Below, piece by piece: positions 8,211 to 64,000 of a stretch of DNA of 64,000 nt; the stretch's first letter is position 1, and every line of letters begins with the position of its first letter. The notes under the pieces were generated by a model that saw nothing but the letters and a program-made list of their open reading frames with translations, made no database searches and had not been told where the DNA came from. The stretch covers positions 84,211-148,210 of the forward strand of contig JASEEZ010000001.1 in the NCBI GenBank assembly GCA_030019215.1, written 5' to 3'. Position numbers and translations under genes: made by a program. The DNA comes from Actinomycetota bacterium. GTDB taxonomy: Bacteria; Actinomycetota; Aquicultoria; Subteraquimicrobiales; UBA9087.

Positions 8211-8753
8211 TCAAGCTTCACGGCAAATCTCGGGTTTAAGGGCATAAATGCAGGGGAAATACCGATACTTTTGGGCAAAGTCGAGACCGTAGCCGACCAC
8301 AAATCGATCGGGGACCTCAAAACCAAGGTACTTTATCTCCAAGGGAACCCGCTGCTTCCCCTTCTTGCTGAGAAAAGCACACACCTGAAGACTTGCGGGA
8401 TGTCGGGCCTTCAGGCTTTTCAGAAGATAACTGAGGGTCAATCCCGTATCCACGATATCCTCCACCACGAGGACATGTCGGCCCCTGATATCCTCGTCCA
8501 GATCCTTCAAGATACGCACTACGCCAGAGGATTTTGTGGCCTGACCATAACTGGAGATGGCCATGAAATCGATCTCCACGGGAACGGTCAACTCCCTCAT
8601 CAAATCGGCCAAAAAAACAATGGCCCCCCTGAGCACCCCTACCAATAGCGGGGATTTTCCTCGATAATCCCGGGAAATCTCCTCCGCCAACTCTTTGACC
8701 CTCTTCTTGATCGCCCTCTCGCCGATCAAAACCTCACCGATTTCCCCCTTCAC
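8211..8753 (-). CDS. hpt: Hypoxanthine phosphoribosyltransferase
   Basis: VLVVEDIVDTGLTL, FVVGYGLD; probable GTG start at 8753 (longer ORF-track start lies in a repeat). Confidence 0.95.
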   Translation of the reverse strand: MKGEIGEVLIGERAIKKRVKELAEEISRDYRGKSPLLVGVLRGAIVFLADLMRELTVPVEIDFMAISSYGQATKSSGVVRILKDLDEDIRGRHVLVVEDIVDTGLTLSYLLKSLKARHPASLQVCAFLSKKGKQRVPLEIKYLGFEVPDRFVVGYGLDFAQKYRYFPCIYALKPEICREA

Positions 8754-8780
8754 AACACTCCCCCTTCGTTGATTATGGAA

Positions 8781-8916
8781 GGATTCGAGGGGTCGAGGAT
8801 TCAAGTGTCGCATTTTTCTAAGATTTTCACTTGACCCCTTGATCCCTGGAATCCTTGAATCCTAAAGCTCTCTTTACGCTTTACTCACCGTAGTGGTTTT
8901 TACCCACTATTTTTGG
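8781..8916. repeat. Octamer-repeat palindromic element plus adjacent MITE fragment (copy 1; copy 2 at 30188-30429)
   Basis: GGATTCGA/GGGGTCGA units facing CTTGACCC/CTTGATCC/CTGGAATC units, then TAAAGCTCTCTT...TACCCACTATTTTTGG, which supplies the last codons of tilS. Confidence 0.85.
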
Positions 8917-10338
8917 TTTTAAATTCTCGACTTTCAACCTTAAAACCTTCCTCGTCTCGTCGGTCACTTTGAACCTATCATCGATCCTGTATCCCACAAC
9001 CCAGACGATCTGGCCATTCATCTCCAAGATGGGAACCCTATCCCTCCTCCTCCTGGGAACTTTCTCATCGACAAAAAAATCCTGAAGTTTCCTGCTGCCC
9101 TTCATCCCCAGGGGCCTGAAACTGTCCCCGGGTAAGCGGGTGCGAATCTTGAGGGTCTCGACTCTGGGGGGTCTCCGACCCTGAAGGGGGGCCTTCAGCT
9201 CATCAGCATCCAGGTAAGCTACTTCCTTTTCCTCGGAAGGCTTAAAATCTCGCGCACTACCGAGATCGGCAATGAACTTTACCCCCAACTCCCTCACCTC
9301 GGTCGCCCCGGGAATATCGAGTAAAACCCCGCCAACGGCGGGGCTTTTGAGTTTCTTTTTTTGGGCAACGATGATCGCACCATACTCACTGAAGGCCACC
9401 AGACCATGGGGTAGATCAACCTGCAGTTTCCCCTTCCCCAAGGCCACATAATCGGAGATAGCCTCGATGTGCTTGAACTCAATTCCGGTTAGATCACCCT
9501 TGACAAAGCGGATACCCTCTCGAATGACCCTCCGTCGAATCGCCAAAGGCAACTTAAGAAGAGCGGAGCGGGTGAGTTTGACCAGTTTCTCTTCAGTCAC
9601 AGCTATTCTCGTGAATTCCTCCTCGGTCACCTCCTCAAGAAACACCTGATCCGCAGCGAGGATTTCGATGGTCTTGAGGGCATTTTCCCTGAACCCGGGG
9701 CTGTACTCTTGAAGAGCAGGTATAAGCCGATGACGAACCCTATTGCGCAGATAAGAGAGGTTTAGATTGGAGGCGTCCACCCGAAACTCTATCCTCTCCT
9801 CCCGACAGTAGGCCTCGATCTCCTCTCTGCCCACCTCGATGAGGGGACGAATGTATCTGTTCCGGACAGGGGGAATTCCTCCCAAACCCTCCATCCCGGC
9901 TCCCCTTAAAATCCGCATAATGAAGGTCTCCACCTGATCGTTGGCCTGATGACCAAGAGCGATCTTGCTTGCTCCCACTTCTTCGGCGACCTCGTCCAGG
10001 AGCATGTATCTCACCTCACGTGCCCCCTCTTCGGGAGAAAGATCCCTCTCATCAATATAGGCGGGAACATCGAAGGAGCGAATCGTACAGGGCAAACCGA
10101 GTTCGCCAGCCAGTTCCTTCACGAAGAGGGCATCCCGCTCCGAAGCCTTCCCCCGCATCATGTGATTGAGATGAAAGACGTGGAGTTCAAGATCCAGGGT
10201 CTCGCGGAGGTCAAACAATACATGAAGCAAGGCTACGGAGTCCGGTCCCCCCGAAACAGCCACCAGGACCCTGTCTCCAGGAGCAAGCATCGAGTACTTT
10301 TGAATTGTCGCAAGGACTTTTTCCTTCACGCCCATCAT
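8881..10338 (-). CDS. tilS: tRNA(Ile)-lysidine synthetase
   Basis: AVSGGPDS PP-loop, HLNHMMR, AREVRY, GHQANDQVET, RNRVRH, C-terminal RLPGD..KLQDFF domain. Confidence 0.97.
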   Translation of the reverse strand: MMGVKEKVLATIQKYSMLAPGDRVLVAVSGGPDSVALLHVLFDLRETLDLELHVFHLNHMMRGKASERDALFVKELAGELGLPCTIRSFDVPAYIDERDLSPEEGAREVRYMLLDEVAEEVGASKIALGHQANDQVETFIMRILRGAGMEGLGGIPPVRNRYIRPLIEVGREEIEAYCREERIEFRVDASNLNLSYLRNRVRHRLIPALQEYSPGFRENALKTIEILAADQVFLEEVTEEEFTRIAVTEEKLVKLTRSALLKLPLAIRRRVIREGIRFVKGDLTGIEFKHIEAISDYVALGKGKLQVDLPHGLVAFSEYGAIIVAQKKKLKSPAVGGVLLDIPGATEVRELGVKFIADLGSARDFKPSEEKEVAYLDADELKAPLQGRRPPRVETLKIRTRLPGDSFRPLGMKGSRKLQDFFVDEKVPRRRRDRVPILEMNGQIVWVVGYRIDDRFKVTDETRKVLRLKVENLKPKIVGKNHYGE

Positions 10339-13148: not shown

Positions 13149-13273
13149 ACCCCTGATAAAGGCAAACTCCGAGAAATCGGGGGACGCAAAGCCGCGGGCC
13201 TAAAGTCGCCGCAAGCCCCCGACGCTGTCGGGGGAGGGGCAGGGTGAATATGGCAGCCAGGTTGCCGGGGGGT
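13149..13273 (+). ncRNA. c-di-GMP-I (GEMM) riboswitch
   Basis: GGCAAAC..GAAA..GGGACGCAAAGCC.CGG.CCTAA....ATGGCAGCC.GGTTGCC; G at the G20-equivalent position (c-di-GMP rather than c-AMP-GMP). Confidence 0.92.
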
Positions 13274-25943: not shown

Positions 25944-26860
25944 TTATCACTTTTCTGCGCTCGCTCCTCTATCGCTTTATCACTTTGCTAATAGTAGTAT
26001 AGTGTAGGCCTAGAAAGTCAGCAATTTCTTTCAAGGTGTAACCGTATTTCAGAGCAGCTTCGCGGATAATCTGGTTTCTCTGTTGTTTACCGCTTAACTC
26101 TTTCGACCCGAATAGCTTCCCTAGAGACGGTCTGGCAAGATATCTTTGGTTACGGGGAATCTCCTTTATGTTTTCTTTTCCCCAAAGCCTTTCTTTAAGC
26201 TCACCCATGAAGGCCTCGCTTCCCAAAAAGATCTGGCCTTTTACGCTGTCCCATGGGTTCTCCTCTTCAGAGGATAAAACAAATTCACGATATCTCTTCT
26301 GAGCAGTACTTTTCTCCTTTGCGAATTGGGCTAAGATCCAATCAACACTGAGATACTTGGCTGGTTTCCTAAAACCAGCCGTCTCCAAATAGCTACTCCA
26401 TTCATAATCTTCGGGACTCTCGACAAGTCTTGCCCGAACTGGATTAAGAACAATGTATCGAGAAAGAGATAGGAGATGGCTTTCTTTTTCCACCAAAATA
26501 GCTTTGTATCTTCCCTGAAAGACGTGGCCAACCCGATGGTTAACCTTGTTGAAGCGCTGGGTGTAGAGCCCGTTGAGGTGTCTCATCCCCTTAGAGAGGT
26601 TTCCTTCGGGGGTTTCAATTATGAGGTGATAGTGGTTGCCCATCAGACAGTAGGCGTGGCAAAGAAAGTTAAAACATCCAACAGTTAAAGAAAGAATGGT
26701 AAGGAAAAGCCGGCGATCCTCGCTGGAGAGAAAAATATCTTCTCTCGCGTTTCCTCGTGAGGTTATGTGATAGACGGCTCCAGGATACTCAAGGCGTAGT
26801 GGTCTAGCCATTTGAAATAGAGCTTAACAAAGAAAATCTTATATTTCAAGACCTGACCCC
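25928..26860 (-). mobile_element. RAYT element bounded by 16-bp inverted repeats
   Basis: GGGGTCAAGTCTTGAA (25928) and TTCAAGACCTGACCCC (26845), 15/16 complementary. Confidence 0.8.
25969..26811 (-). CDS. REP-associated tyrosine (Y1/HUH) transposase with C-terminal HTH
   Basis: MARPLR..YPGAVYHITSRGN, YCLMGNHYH, FQGRYKA, YIVLNPVRA, WSSY. Confidence 0.93.
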   Translation of the reverse strand: MARPLRLEYPGAVYHITSRGNAREDIFLSSEDRRLFLTILSLTVGCFNFLCHAYCLMGNHYHLIIETPEGNLSKGMRHLNGLYTQRFNKVNHRVGHVFQGRYKAILVEKESHLLSLSRYIVLNPVRARLVESPEDYEWSSYLETAGFRKPAKYLSVDWILAQFAKEKSTAQKRYREFVLSSEEENPWDSVKGQIFLGSEAFMGELKERLWGKENIKEIPRNQRYLARPSLGKLFGSKELSGKQQRNQIIREAALKYGYTLKEIADFLGLHYTTISKVIKR

Positions 26861-28117: not shown

Positions 28118-28651
28118 TCAAGAAACCCGTTTCAAAAAGGGCTCGATGTACTGTCTTTGAATAGGGTCGGCGGATTGTCCGAGCAAGACGAGGACGATAT
28201 AGCGGGGCTCGAAGGGGGTAGCTCGGGGATACATCTTAGCCTCGTAGGGAAGTCTATCTCCCTTCTTGTAATTGCAAAGGGAACAGGCGGTGGTAACATT
28301 GTCCCAACTATCCATGCCACCTTTGGAAATCGGCTTGACGTGTTCCCGGCTTAAATGCTCTCCCTTCCTGAACTCGCTCTTGTGACGACCACAATACTGG
28401 CAGGTATAGTGATCGCGGGCAAAGAGTATGGAGTTGGTCACCACCCCACGCAATCTGCGGGGGATCTCTATGTACTTGACGAGCCTTATAACTAGCGGAT
28501 AGGGAAACTCGCATTTCTCCGAGCGAATGCGCCTCTCCACATGCTCCTCGATAACTTCAGCCTTCTCCTTTAAAACTAGAACGACGGCGCGCCTAACGGA
28601 GACAAAAGCTAGAGGCTCCGCGCTAGCATTAAGGATCAATGTCTTTCCCAT
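28118..28651 (-). CDS. HNH endonuclease (McrA-like)
   Basis: LILNAS.EPL, RD.YTCQYCG, EHVKP.SKGG..SWDNVTTAC..CN. Confidence 0.92.
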   Translation of the reverse strand: MGKTLILNASAEPLAFVSVRRAVVLVLKEKAEVIEEHVERRIRSEKCEFPYPLVIRLVKYIEIPRRLRGVVTNSILFARDHYTCQYCGRHKSEFRKGEHLSREHVKPISKGGMDSWDNVTTACSLCNYKKGDRLPYEAKMYPRATPFEPRYIVLVLLGQSADPIQRQYIEPFLKRVS

Positions 28652-30752: not shown

Positions 30753-31406
30753 CTACTTTTTATTTTCGCCTGAAAGTATCCTTCTTATGGATTCTGCCTT
30801 CTTTCTGCCAACTCCTTCAACGCATTGTAAATCGTCCTCGGAGGCATAGACTACCTTCTCAATGCCGCCAAAATGCGATAGTAAAACTCTAGCGAGTTGA
30901 GGTCCTATTCCGGGAAAGGCCTCTAGAATGTGTACCTGCTGTTCAAGCGTATTCTTTGCCTTTTTCTTGGCGTGTAAGGAAACGTAATGCTTTAGACCCG
31001 ATTGCTCTTGTTTTGCAATTACACGCAGAAAACCTGCAGTATCTGTTGAATCTTTGGTAAAAAGTACGGGAATTCCGCGGACAACTGCAATGAGAGCAAG
31101 TGCGCCTCTAATAGCATCAGGGTGTATCTTTCTTCTACCGTATAGCAAATATCCTTCAATAATAAATAAAGGTTTTTCGTAGCTCTCTTTGAGATCGACA
31201 ATCTGTTTAAATAATCGCTTTTTTATTATAGAGCTCAAAAAATCATCTGCAGTCTTTCTCTCTACAGCGACTCTATCACTCAATATATAATCCCCAACCT
31301 CAAGTTCTTGAACAACCAGGGAAACTCTGCCATTTCTTAAGAGATCAGGGATTCCTGACCGCTCTTCTCCATAATCTGCGTAGATAACAAGCTCTGACTG
31401 GTCCAA
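30753..31406 (-). CDS. XPF/ERCC4 nuclease with C-terminal HhH2 (short archaeal-type)
   Basis: VGDYIL..VAVERKT.DDF, FIIEG, PGIGP and EGVGRKKA HhH; AT-richer than neighbours. Confidence 0.9.
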   Translation of the reverse strand: MDQSELVIYADYGEERSGIPDLLRNGRVSLVVQELEVGDYILSDRVAVERKTADDFLSSIIKKRLFKQIVDLKESYEKPLFIIEGYLLYGRRKIHPDAIRGALALIAVVRGIPVLFTKDSTDTAGFLRVIAKQEQSGLKHYVSLHAKKKAKNTLEQQVHILEAFPGIGPQLARVLLSHFGGIEKVVYASEDDLQCVEGVGRKKAESIRRILSGENKK

Positions 31407-37384: not shown

Positions 37385-37393
37385 CGCCGGTTA

Positions 37394-37548
37394 ACTTTCT
37401 CCCATCCAGACTATACTGTCGGCTCTGGAACTTTCCCAGATCAACCCCCGACACGTCGGGGGCTCGCGGACTTTTCCTCGACTAATTCGGGATTCACCGC
37501 CGGTCAGGAATTCCCCCGATATATCGGGGGTCACCTTGCCCCGAAAGT
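37394..37548 (-). ncRNA. FMN riboswitch with an 18-bp palindrome inserted in the P2 loop
   Basis: TTCGGGGCAAGGTGA[..]AATTCCTGACCGGCGGT..AGTCCGCGAG..GATCTGG..TTCCAGAGCCGACAGTATAGTCTGGATGGGAGAA. Confidence 0.93.
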
Positions 37549-37616
37549 TTCTCTATGCTTTTATGTTGTTTTATTTTAGCAAAATCCCCCAGGCTAAGCA
37601 ACCATACCAAAAGCAG

Positions 37617-47271: not shown

Positions 47272-47489
47272 CTCTCATCTCCCAGAAATTCTCTGCAGGA
47301 ATTGGCACCTTGTAAAAACAGTCAATGCCCATCCGCCTAAAGCAGACTGCGAAATCAATCAACCGCTCGCTCAATGGTCAAAAGTCAATTATTTCCCTTT
47401 TGACCAAGCTGGAGGCTGATTAACTCTTGACTGATTTACAGGTTGCCGAGGCTTCATCGGGCCAGTCCCTCCACCTCTCCAGATAAGAG
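47272..47489 (-). ncRNA. SAM-I riboswitch with enlarged P3
   Basis: CTCTTATC..GAGAGGTGGAGGGACTGGCCCGATGAAGCC.CGGCAACC...GGTGCCAATTCC...GATGAGAG upstream of metK. Confidence 0.94.
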
Positions 47490-49652: not shown

Positions 49653-49961
49653 CTACGAAAGCTCCTTCAGGAGAAGCTCACGCTGCCTGGAACCCAAGCC
49701 TTGTACTCGACGTGATGAATCGATACTCAGCTTCTCCATCAATCTTCTAGAGCGAGCCTTGCCGATACCCGGAAGGGACTCCAAAAGAGCGCTGACCTTC
49801 ATTTTTCCAACAATGGGATCAGAAGGCCTACTTAATACAGAAGACAGACTGGTTTGTCCTTTCTTGACGCTAGCCTTGAGTGCTGCTCTCTGTCGCCGCA
49901 CCTCCAAGGCCTTCCTCAAAGCAGCTTTCCTTTCAGCATCCGTAAGTCTTGGTAAAGCCAT
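49653..49961 (-). CDS. mihF: Actinobacterial integration host factor
   Basis: MALP.LT..ER.AAL.KA...R..RA, KMKVSALLESLPG.GK, SRRVQGLG..QR; between pyr genes and gmk. Confidence 0.95.
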   Translation of the reverse strand: MALPRLTDAERKAALRKALEVRRQRAALKASVKKGQTSLSSVLSRPSDPIVGKMKVSALLESLPGIGKARSRRLMEKLSIDSSRRVQGLGSRQRELLLKELS

Positions 49962-59903: not shown

Positions 59904-60458
59904 TCAAGTCACTTCCTCTCCAAGGATAACGGCATCGATGCCGTCTTCTTCCTCAAGGTTCACCCTCACTTCCTCTCGCTGAGAGGTGGGGATGTTCTTC
60001 CCCACAAAATCGGCCCGAACGGGAAGCTCTCGATGCCCCCGGTCAATCATCACCGCCAACTGAATCGTGGTCGGTCTGCCGAGGTCAAATATCGCATCCA
60101 TGGCCGCCCGGACACTCCTCCCCGTGTACAGGACGTCATCCACCAGAATGATGTCTTTGCCCGTAACATCGAAAGTGATCTCCGTGACGGAGGCCTTCGG
60201 CTGAGGACGGGTGCCTATATCATCTCGGTAAAAGGTTATATCCAGTGCACCCAAAGGCGGGGTTATCCCCTCTATCTCTCCAATCTTTCGAGCCAACCTA
60301 CTGGCGAGATGCACTCCGCGACTCCTGATGCCAACCAGGGCCAAATTTTCAGCGCCTCCGCTTCTCTCCACAATCTCATGGGCAATCCTGGTCAAAGCCC
60401 TCTGAATGGCACCCCTATCCATGATGGTGGTCTTTTCCTTGAAAGCCATCTCAAACAC
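59904..60458 (-). CDS. pyrR: Pyrimidine operon regulator / uracil phosphoribosyltransferase
   Basis: [34 protein letters not shown]. Confidence 0.97.
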
Positions 60459-60469
60459 TCCCCATGCAT

Positions 60470-60562
60470 AAAAAAACGCCTCCTACGAGACGGCAAGAGG
60501 CATTTTGGTTTCGCATATTCTTTTCACTCTCCTTGCTAGCCTCACAGGACTAGACTTAAAGG
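60470..60562 (-). promoter_or_regulatory. PyrR-binding attenuator
   Basis: TTTAA..TAGTCCTGTGAGGCTAG binding loop, then terminator GCCTCTTG..TAGGAGGC-GTTTTTTT. Confidence 0.88.
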
Positions 60563-60567
60563 TTTTT

Positions 60568-61221
60568 TTAAGGATAGCAGAGAAACACCGAGACGTCAAC
60601 AAAAACAAGAACCTCACCAAAAAGGGCACCTTCCGGATTCCCGTCACGCTTTATCGCAGAACCTGAACTGATTGCTGCGGGGTCGATTGGCTGGCGTATC
60701 CGCTTGAGCCAGCTATCTAAGTCCAGTCCGGTTTCGTTGGACGCCGCTACAAGAATATGGGCGGCCGCTTTCGCATCTTCTAAAGCATCGTGATGCGTAA
60801 ATTCGTGCCCAAGCATTCTGCAAACATCATATAGGCCATATCCTTTCCATGCGCACTCTGTCCAAGTACGCCGGGCTACTCGCGCCGAATCGAGCCATAT
60901 GCATTCTGGCGCAGTGATCTCGTAGCGCTGGGCTGCCTGGAGGATCGCCACCCGATCAAAGTGCGTGTGGCAGACAACTACTGTGTCTACAAGATAAGAA
61001 CGAAGCGTATCGGCCAATTCCGGGAACGTTGGGGCACCCTTCACCGTAGACTCGTCGATCCCATGGATTGATACGTTTATATCATCGAAGTAGTCTTCTG
61101 GATCGATATAGCTTTTCCACTCGTCCGCAAGCAGGCCATTCTCGTACTTCGCAAGCCCGATCTGGCAAATCGATGCCATATCAGCATTTGCTGTCTCAAC
61201 GTCGATGGCAACGAAATTCAT
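60568..61221 (-). CDS. DEDDh 3'-5' exonuclease (DnaQ-like), truncated at the start of a BRCT domain
   Basis: FVAIDVETAN, H..FD, HHDALEDA; ends GNPEG.LFGEVLVF then runs into the pyrR promoter. Confidence 0.85.
   Translation of the reverse strand: MNFVAIDVETANADMASICQIGLAKYENGLLADEWKSYIDPEDYFDDINVSIHGIDESTVKGAPTFPELADTLRSYLVDTVVVCHTHFDRVAILQAAQRYEITAPECIWLDSARVARRTWTECAWKGYGLYDVCRMLGHEFTHHDALEDAKAAAHILVAASNETGLDLDSWLKRIRQPIDPAAISSGSAIKRDGNPEGALFGEVLVFVDVSVFLCYP
60571..60599 (-). promoter_or_regulatory. sigma70-type promoter of the pyr operon
   Basis: TTGACG-N17-TATCCT with extended -10 TG. Confidence 0.7.
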
Positions 61222-61245
61222 GGTTTGACCTTACTCCCGATTACT

Positions 61246-61489
61246 CTAAAAGTCAGAGGTAATTTCCAAGGTGGCAATGGTTTCCGATGCCGGACCCCTC
61301 TTGAACTTTAGATACGGAGTCCCATCGTCAAGACAAAGCCGTTCTGCCTCAGTCGTGCTAACAGCCAGGATATCGAACAGAATAAAGCCCCGACCTTCAA
61401 CCAAAAGCTTCTCGTCTTCGCTGTAGCACAAGCACGTCCAGTTCCGGATCAAGTTTGCTGAGCCGTTCCTGAAGCTCTCGAACCTTCAT
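61246..61489 (-). pseudogene. Frameshifted small hypothetical cassette gene
   Basis: GAGGAGG RBS plus MKVRELQERLSKLDPELDVL; continues as CYSEDE...ITSDF in another frame (one extra base near 61429). Confidence 0.55.
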
Positions 61490-61526
61490 TTGTCCTCCTC
61501 CCCTCATAGTGGGGTCGCTTCATACC

Positions 61527-61598
61527 GCCTAACGACCAAGCTCACCTGCCGCTATGGAGCGCAGCGGAATAGCGGTCGGCTGGAGCTCCTTGTTAGGA
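61527..61598 (-). mobile_element. Integron attC site
   Basis: TCCTAAC (R'') ... imperfect palindrome ... GTTAGGC (R'), 72 bp, just after a stop codon. Confidence 0.88.
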
Positions 61599-61604
61599 GG
61601 CTTT

Positions 61605-62012
61605 CTATCCAATTTCGAATTGAACTGACTTGAATGCCTCTTCAAAGTAACGCTTCGGTCGATCTCTGCTGATAATGTACTCGACCAAGTCGAACAGGAA
61701 CAAGATAAGGAAGAAGCCCGTGAAAAAACCCAGGATGAACCAAACCCACGGCCAGCCCCCTAGGGATGAATCACCGTCGACCCGATAGGTCAGTTGATTC
61801 CCTTCTATCTTGATCTTGGCCTCAGCCTTGGTTATCGCTCGTTCCCAAATGGACTTGAGATTGCCCTTTACAGTGATGCCTGTAGGCGTGATCGTGATAT
61901 TCTCGTCCTTGTAGTACTTGGCAAGACTGGTCTTGAGCAATTGGGCTATTGTGTCAACCGTTACGCCATCCTTCTTGATCTCGCATTTTCCGTACACTTC
62001 GAAGTTTGCCAT
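61605..62012 (-). CDS. Hypothetical membrane protein (gene cassette)
   Basis: Bounded by GTTAGGAGGC upstream and its complement GCCTCCTAAC downstream; one hydrophobic segment. Confidence 0.75.
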   Translation of the reverse strand: MANFEVYGKCEIKKDGVTVDTIAQLLKTSLAKYYKDENITITPTGITVKGNLKSIWERAITKAEAKIKIEGNQLTYRVDGDSSLGGWPWVWFILGFFTGFFLILFLFDLVEYIISRDRPKRYFEEAFKSVQFEIG

Positions 62013-62061
62013 TTCTCTTGCCTCCTAACAATAATTAGGTACGCATCATGGATGATTCACG

Positions 62062-62934
62062 CTACGACTCGGGCTCTGGCGCCACACGCCACGAGGCAAG
62101 GCTGGCCCGTGCTTCCTCTTTGGTCTTGAGCCAGCCGTACTCGTGGATCGCCGGTGACCGCCTGAATGTCTGAAGCATCTTCAGATTAAAGCCGAAGCGA
62201 AGGAAGAGTCTCCACTTCTTCCAACGGGTCAGGCGCTTGCCGCCCCCGCTCTTGAACGAGACCACCCGAAACGCATCGTCATAGGCGAAGACTGCGCATG
62301 CGAGGTACAGCACCGGGATGAACATCGCTGACATCACGAATGGCAAGCCAAACGCGAAGAGTGCTTGGGTGTTCAGTAGTTGTTCGTAGTTCCTGACGGC
62401 TTGCCACACCACATAGCCGATCAACGCGAAGCCAACGAATGCCTGAACCCCGCTGAGCAGTCGGTGGGCTGGCTCAGCTCCCTCTTGGCGCTCTGTGACC
62501 GCGACAAGCATCACGAGAATGGTGATTCCGGGAACCACAAGGAGGAATTCGATCCAGAAGTTGAACGGGAAGAGGTCGGACAGGAAGGCAAACAGGACCA
62601 TGACCTCGAGATTCACTAGAACAGTCTTGAGGAAGAACCGCAGGTCATACGTTACGCCTTGGGTAGCCGCGCGGGACACCGAGCCGACGGCGCCGACCGC
62701 GAAGAAAGTCAGCGTGTCGTAGAGCATCGTCGAATCCCAGTATCCAATCCGCCAGAGCCACCAAACCACGGCGACGTTGTAGGCGATGATGACTGTGAAG
62801 AGAGCTAGAAGCTTCGGCGAAAGAAGCGTCTTCAGTAATGACCCGATAGACGAACGAACGCCGTCCATGGTCAGTGCCCACACGATGAATATCGCGAGCC
62901 AAAGCACGATTGCGAGCTGGCGTGAGGTCAGCAC
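62062..62934 (-). CDS. Hypothetical multi-pass membrane protein (gene cassette)
   Basis: About 7 hydrophobic segments; follows an attC R' box. Confidence 0.75.
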   Translation of the reverse strand: MLTSRQLAIVLWLAIFIVWALTMDGVRSSIGSLLKTLLSPKLLALFTVIIAYNVAVVWWLWRIGYWDSTMLYDTLTFFAVGAVGSVSRAATQGVTYDLRFFLKTVLVNLEVMVLFAFLSDLFPFNFWIEFLLVVPGITILVMLVAVTERQEGAEPAHRLLSGVQAFVGFALIGYVVWQAVRNYEQLLNTQALFAFGLPFVMSAMFIPVLYLACAVFAYDDAFRVVSFKSGGGKRLTRWKKWRLFLRFGFNLKMLQTFRRSPAIHEYGWLKTKEEARASLASWRVAPEPES

Positions 62935-63016
62935 TACAGAACCCCCGTGCCGAATGATCGCTACCGCAACAGGATAGCGAGGTGCACTGACATCTCGCGG
63001 CCGGCACCAATGCTGT

Positions 63017-63074
63017 GCCTAACGGGCTGCTCAGCCGCAGCGTTTAAGCTGTCGGCTGGACTAGCGGGTTATGT
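63017..63074 (-). mobile_element. Integron attC site
   Basis: ACATAAC (R'') ..CAGCCG.CAGC-TTAAAC-GCTGCGGCTG.. GTTAGGC (R'), 58 bp. Confidence 0.88.
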
Positions 63075-63088
63075 GCTAAAAGATGGAA

Positions 63089-63844
63089 CTAATCAAGAAT
63101 GACGAATTTCTTCAACAATCCTTGTTGTTCAACATCAGCTTGAATATCGTATCGAATAGCAGCAATAAAAAATTTCGCTTTTCTTTGCCGACGGGAAATT
63201 ACGTTCTTTCCCCATTTCGAGACCAATTTACTGCAGCCTAGAGTACCCATTGGGCCAATACCAGAAAGAACCAATACAGTTTTTTTAGCATCCCACGGCG
63301 ATTCATGGCAAACTACTACACCTTCATTTCCAGAAGCAAATTGTTGCTCGTTCAAAACGAAAGCATTATATCCTTCTCCCCAACGAAAATGGTCGTTTAT
63401 GATTGGTTCCAACCGCCCGAAAATTTGACCCGAAATCATGTTAGAGGAGGGGCTTCCAAAGCAGATAAGGTTATTCTCGAAGCTGAAATTGGGATCAGAA
63501 TCATATGAAACAGTAAAAGTTTTTCGTAGGCTTCCCAAGGTATGCCCGAGCTCAACTTGCCCAATCGCATCCCATGTTCCTGTTACCGGATAGCCACTGT
63601 GTATAAGTACTGCTGATCCATCAGACCTTGGTTTTAATAAAGGAGCTGCTCTTAGGACGCCACCAGGAGTTGGGACTTCTGTGCCTTCCTGAAGCGCATA
63701 TAGATTGCTCGAAACTAAAGTAATTGGGCCTTTAAGTCTAGCGAGAGGATCCCGTTTTCTGAAAAGATTTACATGACTGGCTGCTGTGATCAATATAGGA
63801 GTAACATCAAATTCGATTTCTATATCATGATACCTTACAATCAT
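63089..63844 (-). CDS. Hypothetical protein (gene cassette, AT-rich)
   Basis: GAGAGG RBS; NLICFGSP.SN and SPW....VLVLSG....GT motifs; attC downstream. Confidence 0.75.
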   Translation of the reverse strand: MIVRYHDIEIEFDVTPILITAASHVNLFRKRDPLARLKGPITLVSSNLYALQEGTEVPTPGGVLRAAPLLKPRSDGSAVLIHSGYPVTGTWDAIGQVELGHTLGSLRKTFTVSYDSDPNFSFENNLICFGSPSSNMISGQIFGRLEPIINDHFRWGEGYNAFVLNEQQFASGNEGVVVCHESPWDAKKTVLVLSGIGPMGTLGCSKLVSKWGKNVISRRQRKAKFFIAAIRYDIQADVEQQGLLKKFVILD

Positions 63845-63875
63845 AATTTCCTCTCCCAGTTATGCGTTTCTCGAT

Positions 63876-64000
63876 TTATTTAAGGCCATAGTATTTCAAT
63901 GCAGCTTCACTCAATACCTTTGTGGCTACAGTTACACCCATTTTCCACGTGCCTTGAGCGGCCTTCTTTAAATTTAATGCAATCCAATTTTTTGCTTTCT
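63876..64000 (-). CDS. 3' end of a probable AbiTii-domain-type protein (partial)
   Basis: KAKNWIALNLKKAAQGTWKMGVTVATKVLSEAALKYYGLK*; followed by a lone GCATAAC R''-like box. Confidence 0.55.
   Translation of the reverse strand, partial: KAKNWIALNLKKAAQGTWKMGVTVATKVLSEAALKYYGLK

Follow-up and report, generated by a model that had tools for sequence, protein, structure and literature searches.

The first inverted-integrase integron to be described was that of Treponema denticola, a chromosomal integron in which intI is co-oriented with the cassettes. The superintegron of Vibrio cholerae has a divergent layout, and Vibrio arrays contain many attC sites that are nearly identical. Class 1 mobile integrons, in which integrase, attI and a short array have moved into a new genome as a single unit, have been reported on corynebacterial and mycobacterial plasmids. 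Closest to the locus studied here are the chromosomal integrons of Chlorobiaceae and Desulfuromonadales (Geobacter, Pelobacter group), in which intI and cassettes lie on one strand. The inverted-integrase group is paraphyletic according to the available part of Cury 2016 (PMC4889954), and the available parts of two genome surveys (PMC4889954, PMC9024848), which cover complete genomes, describe the Actinomycetota as a phylum without complete integrons.

The window (the whole 64,000-nt stretch of DNA that was analysed) ends within such a gene-capture platform, located in the chromosome of an uncultured actinobacterium. Positions 60604-64000 are very probably the far 3.4-kb end of a complete integron, chromosomal and with an inverted integrase, and the integron is a new case of a known type, not unique in Actinomycetota. 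An earlier note had read 60600-64000 as an integron cassette array in an apparent actinobacterium, with the integrase possibly past the right edge; that reading is borne out by the integrase, found 4.5 kb outside the window, by matches to attC models and by actinobacterial host markers.

Layout and cassettes

The whole insertion measures 9,014 bp (contig C11, 144814-153827). It includes an intact intI, an attI defined by comparison with other loci and some ten cassettes, with seven full and two remnant attC sites. Every integron part is on the minus strand, an arrangement called "inverted integrase". Features are listed in window numbering or, beyond its right edge, in coordinates of the extended locus L001 (L001 coordinate + 60000 = window-equivalent position).

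60568-61221, minus: truncated DEDDh (DnaQ-like) exonuclease gene, last gene of the array, with no attC after it
60595-60603, no strand: left 9-bp direct repeat GTCAACAAA; inserted DNA from 60604
61246-61489, minus: small ORF of the last cassette, apparently frameshifted
61527-61601, minus: attC_a; R'' GCCTCCTAAC (61601-61592), R' GTTAGGC (61533-61527)
61605-62012, minus: 135-aa cassette gene; hydrophobic stretch at the C-terminus
62020-62040, minus: remnant attC 'x'; R''-like ACCTAAT, 4 nt, R' GTTAGGA; between the 290-aa and 135-aa cassettes
62062-62934, minus: 290-aa cassette gene; many hydrophobic stretches; GC ~0.57
63017-63074, minus: attC_b; R'' ACATAAC, R' GTTAGGC
63089-63844, minus: 251-aa cassette gene; GC ~0.44
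63859-63865, minus: possible remnant R'' box GCATAAC, in the 31-nt gap after the AbiTii stop codon
63876 to window-equivalent 64796, minus: 306-aa AbiTii-domain gene (abortive-infection, phage-defence family); 3' end 63876-64000 in the window
L001 4835-4893, minus: attC_c; R' GTTATGC
L001 4897-5760, minus: DUF5677 gene
L001 5777-5836, minus: attC_d
L001 5864-6673, minus: 269-aa gene
L001 6718-6801, minus: attC_e
L001 6796-7347, minus: 183-aa gene
L001 7364-7431, minus: attC_f
L001 7462-7704, minus: 80-aa zinc-ribbon-like gene
L001 7944-8003, minus: attC_g
L001 8015-8260, minus: 81-aa membrane gene
L001 8300-8306, minus: attI core GTTATCT; attI region up to 8469
L001 8470-9528 (window-equivalent 68470-69528), minus: intI, 352 aa, intact open frame
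L001 9618-9626 (window-equivalent 69618-69626), no strand: right 9-bp repeat copy GTTAACAAA, outside the window

Read along the minus strand, the parts run from intI (352 aa) through an attI of ~170 nt, ending at G|TTATCT, and some ten promoterless cassettes to the truncated last cassette, the cassettes being separated by seven hairpin-forming attC sites and two apparently decayed ones. The ordinary integron mechanism would apply: IntI would catalyse exchange at G|TT between an attC folded from its bottom strand and either attI or a second attC; new cassettes would enter beside attI, and transcription would start from a promoter in or near attI.

The ORFs of the array had been described as co-oriented and of differing composition, and indeed all are on the minus strand, with GC values between 0.40 and 0.58 (400-nt windows, 60600-64000). 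At least one cassette belongs to a phage-defence family, its product matching AbiTii at 171.5 bits in Pfam and 137 bits in PADLOC. The 135-aa, 290-aa and 251-aa proteins have no family match in NCBIfam, Pfam, PADLOC or PHROGs; the 290-aa product is probably an integral membrane protein, judging from its sequence. The small ORF of the last cassette, also without a family match, begins at ATG 61489 with GGAGG upstream and stops after 31 codons, and its continuation lies in the frame of TTG 61452. For the exonuclease, residues 1-206 come from the inserted DNA and the last 11 from the host flank. It matches Pfam RNase_T at 60 bits and the PADLOC DEDDh and PDC-S48 families at ~80 bits, and its relatives (the 120 best listed) are mostly 288-291 aa long, and a BRCT domain is present in many. 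With P0001 it shares 90% identity over residues 1-208, the similarity ending at the junction. The array contains no resistance cassette, and none of its cassette proteins has a counterpart in any of the 86 IntI loci compared (tblastn, E<=1e-4).

Integrase, attI and attC sites

IntI matches the integron integrase model TIGR02249 at 481 bits (cutoff 265), while Xer profiles align to it in two separate pieces that skip residues ~218-267. It aligns over its full length with VchIntIA (PDB 2A3V; E 1.2e-87), including the IntI-specific segment. All six catalytic positions (R-K-H-R-H-Y) are kept in this alignment. W157 of VchIntIA, which we take to be a residue of relevance, aligns to R in the protein here. 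A genome-wide search finds this single IntI in the host, and its gene has a GC of ~0.53, close to the 0.51 of the genome.

Downstream of intI, the 16 closest IntI loci examined, including that of G010 (a genome from a different family of the same class) and those of Chlorobiaceae, share conserved sequence with the locus here up to ATTG|TT, beyond which all diverge. This comparison places a putative attI beside intI with its crossover at G|TT. As in the Chlorobiaceae and Desulfuromonadales integrons, the region has a hairpin after the intI stop, a repeated CTTATRC-type motif and an ATTG|TT crossover ~170 nt downstream. A consensus scan called no sigma-70-type promoter on the minus strand within attI (9 sites overall against 9.2 expected). 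By eye only, a TATAAT lies ~7 nt upstream of the attI core, partly conserved as TAGAAT in G010, and may belong to a cassette promoter.

The seven attC sites are 58-84 nt long, with extra unpaired bases on the R''-L'' arm of the ORF-sense strand. In their alignment 85.6% of cells pair, a share that drops to 23-39% on sliding the partners. Changes on both sides are seen in 8 of the 16 pairs, and none of 500 shuffles attains the observed covariation score; mean column identity is 54%. We used two covariance models, R1, trained on the seven sites of this locus, and R2, built from 45 attC sites beside IntI genes of other phyla only; the validation is partly circular, since both models are home-made and the R2 seeds were chosen by R1. 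Over 998,055 bases R1 gives 104 matches at E<=1. Of these, 95 lie outside the host genome, adjoining IntI genes of Chlorobiaceae, Cyanobium, Xanthomonadaceae, Verrucomicrobia and others; the window has none outside the array. R2 recovers all seven sites (E 2.5e-9 to 1.8e-3); with both strands searched, the 97,876 bases contain no further match, even at E<=10. When the complete 1.63-Mb genome is scanned with sequence-only HMMs, they match the array and, apart from it, one weak site (E 2.3). An Rfam scan of the window returned no attC family; IntegronFinder's attC model is not part of Rfam.

Both attC sites noticed earlier in the window are matched by the two models. The first, attC_a, scores 55.0 bits with R1 and 45.7 bits with R2 (E 2.1e-8). 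Its fold is an imperfect hairpin whose 5' arm carries the extra bases, and over 78 nt it has 86% identity with a site in the array of Chlorobium sp. KB01 (L036 13974-14050). The second, attC_b, scores 49.2 bits with R1 and 24.5 bits with R2 (E 1.8e-3), and its fold has a bulged A on the 5' arm. The remnant 'x' looks like an internally deleted attC; its R'' complements the preceding core at 5 of 7 positions, and it matches neither R1 nor R2.

The box GCATAAC at 63859-63865 had been taken as a leftover R''. Such a box is there, and its sequence exactly complements GTTATGC, the core at the start of its own cassette, which by our calculation would arise by chance with a probability of 25 positions x 4^-7 = 0.0015; as a generic box it is weak evidence, because RYYYAAC is expected ~3 times per strand in 3.4 kb, and it shows no structure and no match to R1 or R2. 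It is plausibly the remainder of an attC that once lay between the AbiTii and 251-aa cassettes.

The same relationship extends to the full array. The core at the start of a cassette complements the R'' of that cassette at 52 of 56 positions, whereas the R' of the same array site matches at only 45 of 56. The value of 52 is the maximum over 40,320 permutations and is reached by four of them, all swaps of identical entries. This is the hybrid-site signature of past recombination at G|TT. In the 135-aa cassette, the start GTTAGGAGGC (62029-62020, minus) complements the cassette's own R'' at 10 of 10 positions; the complementary ends claimed for this cassette, on the forward strand GTTAGGAGGC at 61592-61601 and GCCTCCTAAC at 62020-62029, are present, the first having been placed ~3 nt off.

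In an IntI tree of 80 rows (7 rows, short or with stops, were omitted), the host protein (G000) is sister to that of G010 (SH-aLRT 90). The pair falls inside a clade of Desulfuromonadales and Chlorobiota, which in turn lies within a 39-row group with Cyanobacteria and Spirochaetes (SH-aLRT 96). [quoted passage not shown] IntI is 70-81% identical to its Chlorobiaceae and Desulfuromonadales relatives, and the attC sites are of the same family; the host phylum differs, nucleotide identity of intI is 69-73%, and the unit here arrived by an insertion that can be dated, a sister species having the site empty. Spirochaetota IntI proteins are in the same 96%-supported group, and those fetched are 58-63% identical to the one here. 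The Vibrio superintegron has similar R''/L''-L'/R' hairpins with unpaired bases on one arm, but the locus here is co-directional and, unlike the Vibrio arrays, has only ~10 cassettes and dissimilar attC sites.

Three other classifications were rejected. A CALIN (an attC cluster without integrase) is excluded by the position of intI, 466 nt from attC_g, and a sedentary chromosomal integron by the small number of cassettes, the attC divergence and the absence of the unit from a same-genus genome. For mobile integrons of classes 1-5, the equivalog model of IntI1, NF011946, reaches 346.6 bits where its cutoff is 435. Family searches of the locus found no transposase among the ORFs, and the insertion has no terminal inverted repeats (the best local match being an internal 13-mer); its chromosomal location and inverted orientation also set it apart from class 1.

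Host and insertion site

The host is an uncultured bacterium of the Actinomycetota with a small genome and no WhiB, from a lineage resembling the Aquicultoria or Subteraquimicrobiales; it is represented by a 52-contig draft from a mixed sample (1.63 Mb, 94% complete, GC 0.51). The actinobacterial affiliation proposed for it is upheld. An actinobacterial-type IHF (mIHF) at window 49653-49961 scores 123 bits with NF041260 (cutoff 60), a model that among 14 control genomes matches only Corynebacterium glutamicum. The nearest named relatives of PyrC, a single protein, are in the same phylum (71% identity to Candidatus Subteraquimicrobiales, 68% to "Actinomycetota bacterium" and 61% to Candidatus Aquicultor secundus, as named in the source). 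The phylum is WhiB-bearing: WhiB occurs in 44 of its 81 sampled genomes (41 of 78 when G041, G057 and G085, positives flagged as unpublished, are excluded), among them genomes of 7.5-9.2 Mb with 10-11 copies, and among the controls in C. glutamicum only. Against the affiliation, WhiB has no match in the host genome, nor in any of the 7 genomes of its class, the host included.

One end of the 9,014-bp unit faces the stop of an amidohydrolase gene resembling aminofutalosine deaminase, the other the promoter and PyrR leader of the pyr operon. In a same-genus genome (G001, contig C16), the amidohydrolase gene and pyrR adjoin, 214 bp apart on a single contig; this genome is 76% complete, but the empty site lies within one contig nonetheless. 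The two genes are 91% and 96% identical, respectively, to those of the host (blastn, pairwise alignment). The alignment breaks at L001 603/604 and 9617/9618, so that the boundary suspected near 60600 falls at window 60603/60604; the junctions are based on the assembly and on comparison with G001. One 9-bp copy, GTCAACAAA, stands at the empty site between the two genes. The whole unit, intI included, would have been gained in the host lineage after its split from the sister species that keeps the empty site. The absence of the 9-kb insertion from the same-genus genome, together with the grouping of IntI with Chlorobiota and Desulfuromonadales, indicates an integron that is not native to the lineage.

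It is very improbable that the segment is an integron of another organism, e.g., of Chlorobiota or Desulfuromonadales, joined to host DNA by the assembler or mis-binned. The draft does come from a mixed sample in many contigs, IntI is 73-81% identical to Chlorobiaceae and Desulfuromonadales proteins, and the GC of the cassettes is unlike that of the flanks. However, the segment sits inside a contig of 167,875 bp, host genes bordering it on either side, both junctions fall in a 9-nt repeat, which is too short for assembler joining, and the flanks are exactly contiguous in the same-genus genome, where the single-copy empty site itself argues against a chimera. In addition, the nearest IntI in the tree belongs to a genome of the host's class (G010), nucleotide identity to all fetched foreign intI genes is at most 73%, and the GC of intI is near that of the host. 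It is unlikely, if less remote, that the ancestor of the genus already had the integron and that G001 has since lost it through a deletion between the 9-bp repeats. Such a deletion would leave exactly one copy, as found in G001, a single close relative is available for comparison, and the direction of change is unrooted since more distant relatives lack the pyrR-amidohydrolase adjacency. Against it, the similarity of the exonuclease to its full-length relatives ends exactly at the left repeat, as expected of an original insertion junction and a coincidence for a later deletion endpoint, and IntI scores above cutoff in none of the 7 same-order genomes searched (G001-G007).

The acquired integron might also be a decaying relic that keeps its architecture but no longer captures or shuffles cassettes in this host, a reading we consider somewhat unlikely. 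The two attC remnants, the truncated distal gene and the frameshifted ORF fit decay, as do the R aligned to VchIntIA W157 and the frameshift that splits the closest IntI (G010), and the available part of one survey suggests that integrons establish poorly in the phylum (PMC4889954). From the full-length open frame of intI with its six catalytic positions, the good scores of the seven attC sites with the other-phyla model R2, and the intact attI core and upstream motifs, we infer instead that the integron may be active at present.

Mode of insertion and occurrence in the phylum

Across the junctions the sequences are AATTTG|TTAACT and TTTTTG|TTGACG; at the empty site the sequence is AATTTG|TTGACG. 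These are the exact products of a reciprocal exchange within the shared TTTGTT, so that the single mismatch between the 9-bp copies needs no later mutation. The junction upstream of intI, TTGTTAACT, agrees at 8 of 9 positions with the attI core of the IntI clade (TTGTTATCT here, TTGTTAGCT in G010). The integron could conceivably have moved whole, as a circle recombining at a G|TT secondary site, possibly by its own IntI, and thus have been self-mobilising with no need of a transposon; we regard this as distinctly unlikely.

The rarity of integrons in Actinobacteria, also asserted earlier, holds for the complete-genome surveys in their available parts (PMC4889954, PMC9024848) but less well for our sample, in which 23 of 401 genomes of the phylum (one genome per species) carry an IntI above the TIGR02249 cutoff. 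Thirteen of the 24 IntI loci fetched have attC-model matches (E<=0.01) in an integron-consistent orientation, and in one genus of the phylum (g170) an integron is kept at one locus in two species.

The integrase and its attC sites

The locus is a genuine inverted-type integron, complete in its parts, which an uncultured actinobacterium acquired as a single 9-kb unit. Integrons of this kind are already known; the new elements are the lineage of the host, the clean empty site and a phylum-wide census. The window covers positions 84211-148210 of contig C11 in the host genome, G000, which comprises 1.63 Mb in 52 contigs (∼50% GC); C11 extends 19.6 kb beyond the window's right edge. The integrase gene that the earlier note had suggested might lie past this edge is indeed there, on the minus strand at 8470-9528 of locus L001 (C11:144211-164210; L001 coordinates are window coordinates minus 60000), and its presence rules out a CALIN reading.

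The predicted 352-aa integron integrase scores 481 bits against the IntI profile TIGR02249 (cutoff 265) and 346.6 bits against the class-1 equivalog NF011946, under the cutoff of 435, while Xer models match it in two pieces that skip residues ∼218-267. It aligns over its full length with VchIntIA (2A3V; E 1.2e-87) and retains all six catalytic residues (R, K, H, R, H, Y). Of two tryptophans with roles in VchIntIA, W219 is retained, and W157 aligns to R. A genome-wide search of G000 found no second IntI.

Seven attC sites, named from the distal end toward intI, make up the array:

attC_a: window 61527-61601, minus strand, RYYYAAC-type start box and GTTRRRY-type end box
attC_b: window 63017-63074, minus strand, RYYYAAC-type start box and GTTRRRY-type end box
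attC_c: L001 4835-4893, minus strand
attC_d: L001 5777-5836, minus strand
attC_e: L001 6718-6801, minus strand
attC_f: L001 7364-7431, minus strand
attC_g: L001 7944-8003, minus strand

RYYYAAC and GTTRRRY are the consensus words that bound attC sites, and attC_a and attC_b are the two well-formed sites already recognized within the window. All seven fold as imperfect hairpins whose surplus unpaired bases are on the minus-strand 5' arm (R''-L''). By an extrahelical-base rule that reportedly comes from structural work on VchIntIA-attC, the minus strand, with which the ORFs are co-oriented, is thus the top strand. In the seven-sequence alignment (A1), 85.6% of cells pair, versus 23-39% when the partners are slid by 1-3 columns, changes occur on both sides in 8 of 16 pairs, and none of 500 shuffles reached the observed covariation score.

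A covariance model built from these seven sites (R1) was run against 998,055 bases (the window, L001, L002 and 89 IntI loci), and gave 104 matches at E≤1. Nine are from this locus (seven sites, two counted twice), with none in the window's other ∼60 kb, and the remaining 95 adjoin IntI genes of other organisms, either downstream on the IntI strand (Chlorobiaceae, Cyanobium, Desulfuromonadales and others) or upstream on the opposite strand (Xanthomonadaceae, Verrucomicrobiae and others). A second model (R2), seeded with 45 sites that R1 gathered from 28 foreign loci having matches at E≤0.001, and with no G000 sites, recovers all seven attC sites (E 2.5e-9 to 1.8e-3), with no further match at E≤10 across 97,876 bases. 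The validation is reciprocal and not fully independent, because the R2 seeds were chosen by R1. Sequence-only HMMs (A1, A2) run on the whole genome found the array and one match in contig C17 (E 2.3), with no others. No attC family was matched in an Rfam scan of the window, and a generic repeat finder applied to 60400-64000 did not pick out the sites.

The insertion and the empty site

In G001, a genome of the same genus, a single contig carries the amidohydrolase gene (91% identity) and pyrR (96% identity) with 214 bp between them, and R1 has no match at this site. The alignment of the two genomes breaks at L001 603/604 and 9617/9618, which delimits an insertion of 9,014 bp, from ∼90 nt upstream of intI to inside an exonuclease gene. 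A short repeat flanks it in G000 (GTCAACAAA at the left end, GTTAACAAA at the right), and G001 has GTCAACAAA in single copy:

L001 595-603 (window 60595-60603): 9-bp repeat, left copy
L001 9618-9626 (past the window edge): 9-bp repeat, right copy, differing from the left at one base

The earlier note had raised a chimeric assembly near 60600. The flanks are contiguous in G001, and each junction here lies in the 9-nt repeat; judged from these sequences, a double assembly chimera appears very unlikely, because an overlap of 9 nt cannot drive an assembler join. A transposon origin of the 9-bp repeat is rejected for now, since the insertion has no transposase and no terminal inverted repeats. Of the two copies, the one upstream of intI (TTGTTAACT, minus strand) agrees at 8 of 9 positions with the attI core of its IntI clade. 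We speculate that the junctions, which fit such an event, may stem from a reciprocal exchange inside their common TTTGTT, possibly at G|TT. No known mobility mechanism explains how an integron could be inserted with ends like these. The PyrR leader at 60469-60566 (Rfam) is host flank, with its start 38 nt away from the distal end of the integron. Cassettes and pyr operon share a strand, so that read-through from the array would enter the PyrR attenuator.

Cassettes, remnants and attI

The cassette genes, counted from intI, are all on the minus strand:

1st: 81-aa membrane protein, minus strand
2nd: 80-aa zinc-ribbon-like protein, with a small membrane ORF ahead of it, minus strand
3rd: 183-aa protein, minus strand
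4th: 269-aa protein, minus strand
5th: 287-aa DUF5677 protein, minus strand
6th: 306-aa AbiTii protein (Pfam 171.5 bits, PADLOC 137 bits), minus strand
7th: 251-aa protein, minus strand
8th: 290-aa membrane protein, minus strand
9th: 135-aa protein, minus strand
10th: frameshifted small ORF behind attC_a, window 61246-61489, minus strand
11th: truncated DEDDh exonuclease, window 60568-61221, minus strand

The co-oriented ORFs of differing composition described in the earlier note extend on the minus strand from 60568 to 64000 (GC 0.40-0.58). Seven of the 11 cassette ORFs have no significant match in NCBIfam, Pfam, PADLOC and PHROGs scans, and a tblastn search of the 11 proteins against 86 IntI loci gave no match at E≤1e-4. 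The frame of the small ORF at 61246-61489 shifts ∼20 codons in, through a genuine frameshift or through an error in the assembly.

Insertion of cassettes by a G|TT exchange would leave the first bases of a cassette complementary to its own R'' rather than to that of the upstream site. Across eight cassettes, the starts complement their own R'' at 52 of 56 positions, versus 45 of 56 for the R' now in the same site as the R'', and only 4 of 40,320 permutations reach 52, all of them swaps of identical entries. The complementary cassette ends pointed out previously are the clearest case, the 10-mers at 61592-61601 and 62020-62029 matching at 10 of 10 positions. Two apparently decayed sites are also present:

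Window 62020-62040, minus strand: decayed attC site x, R'' plus 4 nt plus R' left
Window 63859-63865, minus strand: possible decayed attC box, R'' alone left

The second of these had been proposed as a remnant R'' box. As a generic box it is uninformative, about three being expected by chance per strand in 3.4 kb; what stands is that the 7-mer is the exact complement of its own cassette's starting core and is located in the 31-nt spacer past the AbiTii stop codon, a placement and complementarity with a calculated chance of ∼0.0015.

At the other end of the array, the 170 nt after the intI stop (the proposed attI, L001 8300-8469) are conserved with G010, a genome of the same class and another family, and the motif pattern is also kept in Chlorobiaceae and in a Nitrospira-labelled genome. 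In this pattern, a hairpin at the stop is followed by recurring copies of a CTTATRC-type motif and, last, by ATTG|TT, past which the sequences diverge in 16 of 16 loci compared. The attI core, GTTATCT at L001 8306-8300, and the complement of R'' in the first cassette agree at 6 of 7 positions. TATAAT lies just upstream of the core, where a consensus promoter scan calls no site, and inspection by eye found no convincing LexA-type box upstream of intI.

The truncated exonuclease has 90% identity to a relative over residues 1-208, and the similarity ends at the insertion junction. Of the 6,151 proteins that match it at E≤1e-10, the best 120 listed mostly have 288-291 aa and often carry a BRCT domain. 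Exonuclease-BRCT proteins labelled at source as Deltaproteobacteria, Chloroflexota, Nitrospirota, Planctomycetota, Thermoleophilia and a Methanosarcinaceae archaeon are 75-90% identical, and because such high identity spans phyla, the comparison suggests that the gene may be very mobile.

Integrase origin, host and distribution in the phylum

In one-genome-per-species collections, the closest IntI proteins are from Chlorobiaceae (≤81%), Desulfuromonadales (70-77%) and Desulfobulbaceae (73%), with intI DNA identity to those loci of at most 73%. In a quick maximum-likelihood tree of 80 rows (leaving out L030, L037, L045, L069, L080, L099 and L106, which are short or contain stops), G000 is sister to G010 (SH-aLRT 90), and the pair is nested in a clade of Desulfuromonadales and Chlorobiota, itself within a group that includes Cyanobacteria and Spirochaetes (SH-aLRT 96). 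The IntI of G009 has another position in the latter group, and those of G022 (two copies) and G030 fall in the tree's other half, so that the IntI of G000's class are polyphyletic. The closest IntI in the tree, that of G010 (L102, G010:C36 9022-9985), is split by a frameshift near residue 102. Matches to the attC model lie downstream of it.

An actinobacterial-type IHF is encoded at window 49653-49961 (123 bits, cutoff 60), by a model that among 14 control genomes is positive in Corynebacterium glutamicum alone. WhiB was found neither in G000 nor in 6 other sampled genomes of its class, and is present in 44 of 81 sampled phylum genomes (41 of 78 minus three positives flagged unpublished), including genomes of 7.5-9.2 Mb with 10-11 copies. 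The nearest named PyrC homologues are from Candidatus Subteraquimicrobiales (71%), "Actinomycetota bacterium" (68%) and Candidatus Aquicultor secundus (61%). Because of these three lines of sequence evidence, we read the host as probably belonging to an uncultured WhiB-less class of Actinomycetota. Several further families of the phylum likewise lack WhiB.

Elsewhere in the window, the minus strand encodes a 217-aa protein resembling the nuclease end of archaeal Hef/XPF (30753-31406; NF010337 247 bits, below the cutoff of 610; NF040956 155 bits), which is unusual for a bacterium, a REP-associated tyrosine transposase (25969-26811; 85 bits, cutoff 80) and, near the latter, a 177-aa ORF with a weak IscB-like HNH match (28118-28651; 51 bits, below the cutoff of 175). 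Rfam riboswitches are:

Window 13151-13269: c-di-GMP-I riboswitch
Window 37390-37552: FMN riboswitch
Window 47272-47489: SAM riboswitch

Complete-genome surveys (Cury et al. 2016 and Néron et al.; PMC4889954, PMC9024848) report no complete integron in Actinobacteria, and suggest an unknown barrier to integron establishment there. A 2026 permafrost-genome study still speaks of a "virtual absence" of integrons in Actinomycetota (PMC13323075), and a 2021 review lists Actinobacteriota among integron-bearing phyla (PMC8618304). Searches of a literature library found no paper pairing "Aquicultor" with "integron" and none combining integron, attC and Acidimicrobiia.

IntI scores above cutoff in 6 of 41 relatives (40 genomes plus G000). 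In a phylum census of species-level genomes, drawn evenly, it does so in 23 of 401 (21 of 399 minus the unpublished-flagged positives G116 and G178), and in 17 of 367 high-quality genomes. R1 was applied to 24 IntI loci; 13 (12 genomes) have attC matches at E≤0.01 in an integron-consistent orientation, 5 more have weaker matches (E≤1) and 6 have none. WhiB-positive IntI carriers include G047, G049, G061, G077, G089, G091 and G170. Two WhiB-less species of genus g170, another genus of the phylum, carry an integron at one common locus (L107, G245:C1; L108, G338:C10); the upstream flank (83%) and intI (81%) are conserved between them and the arrays differ, which is the pattern of a resident chromosomal integron. 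One of the two genomes is closed in a single contig (1.84 Mb), and G338 has 7 attC-model matches of ∼85 nt. The 23 carriers among 401 genomes and the same-locus integron in two species of one genus suggest that the survey gap is largely a sampling matter.

The present locus is a well-anchored counter-example, with an intact IntI, attI, seven attC sites and an empty site in a sister species, and its IntI clade is common to Chlorobiota and Desulfuromonadales. It makes testable both integron function in Gram-positive, high-level actinobacterial backgrounds and the entry of a whole integron into a new chromosome without a transposon.
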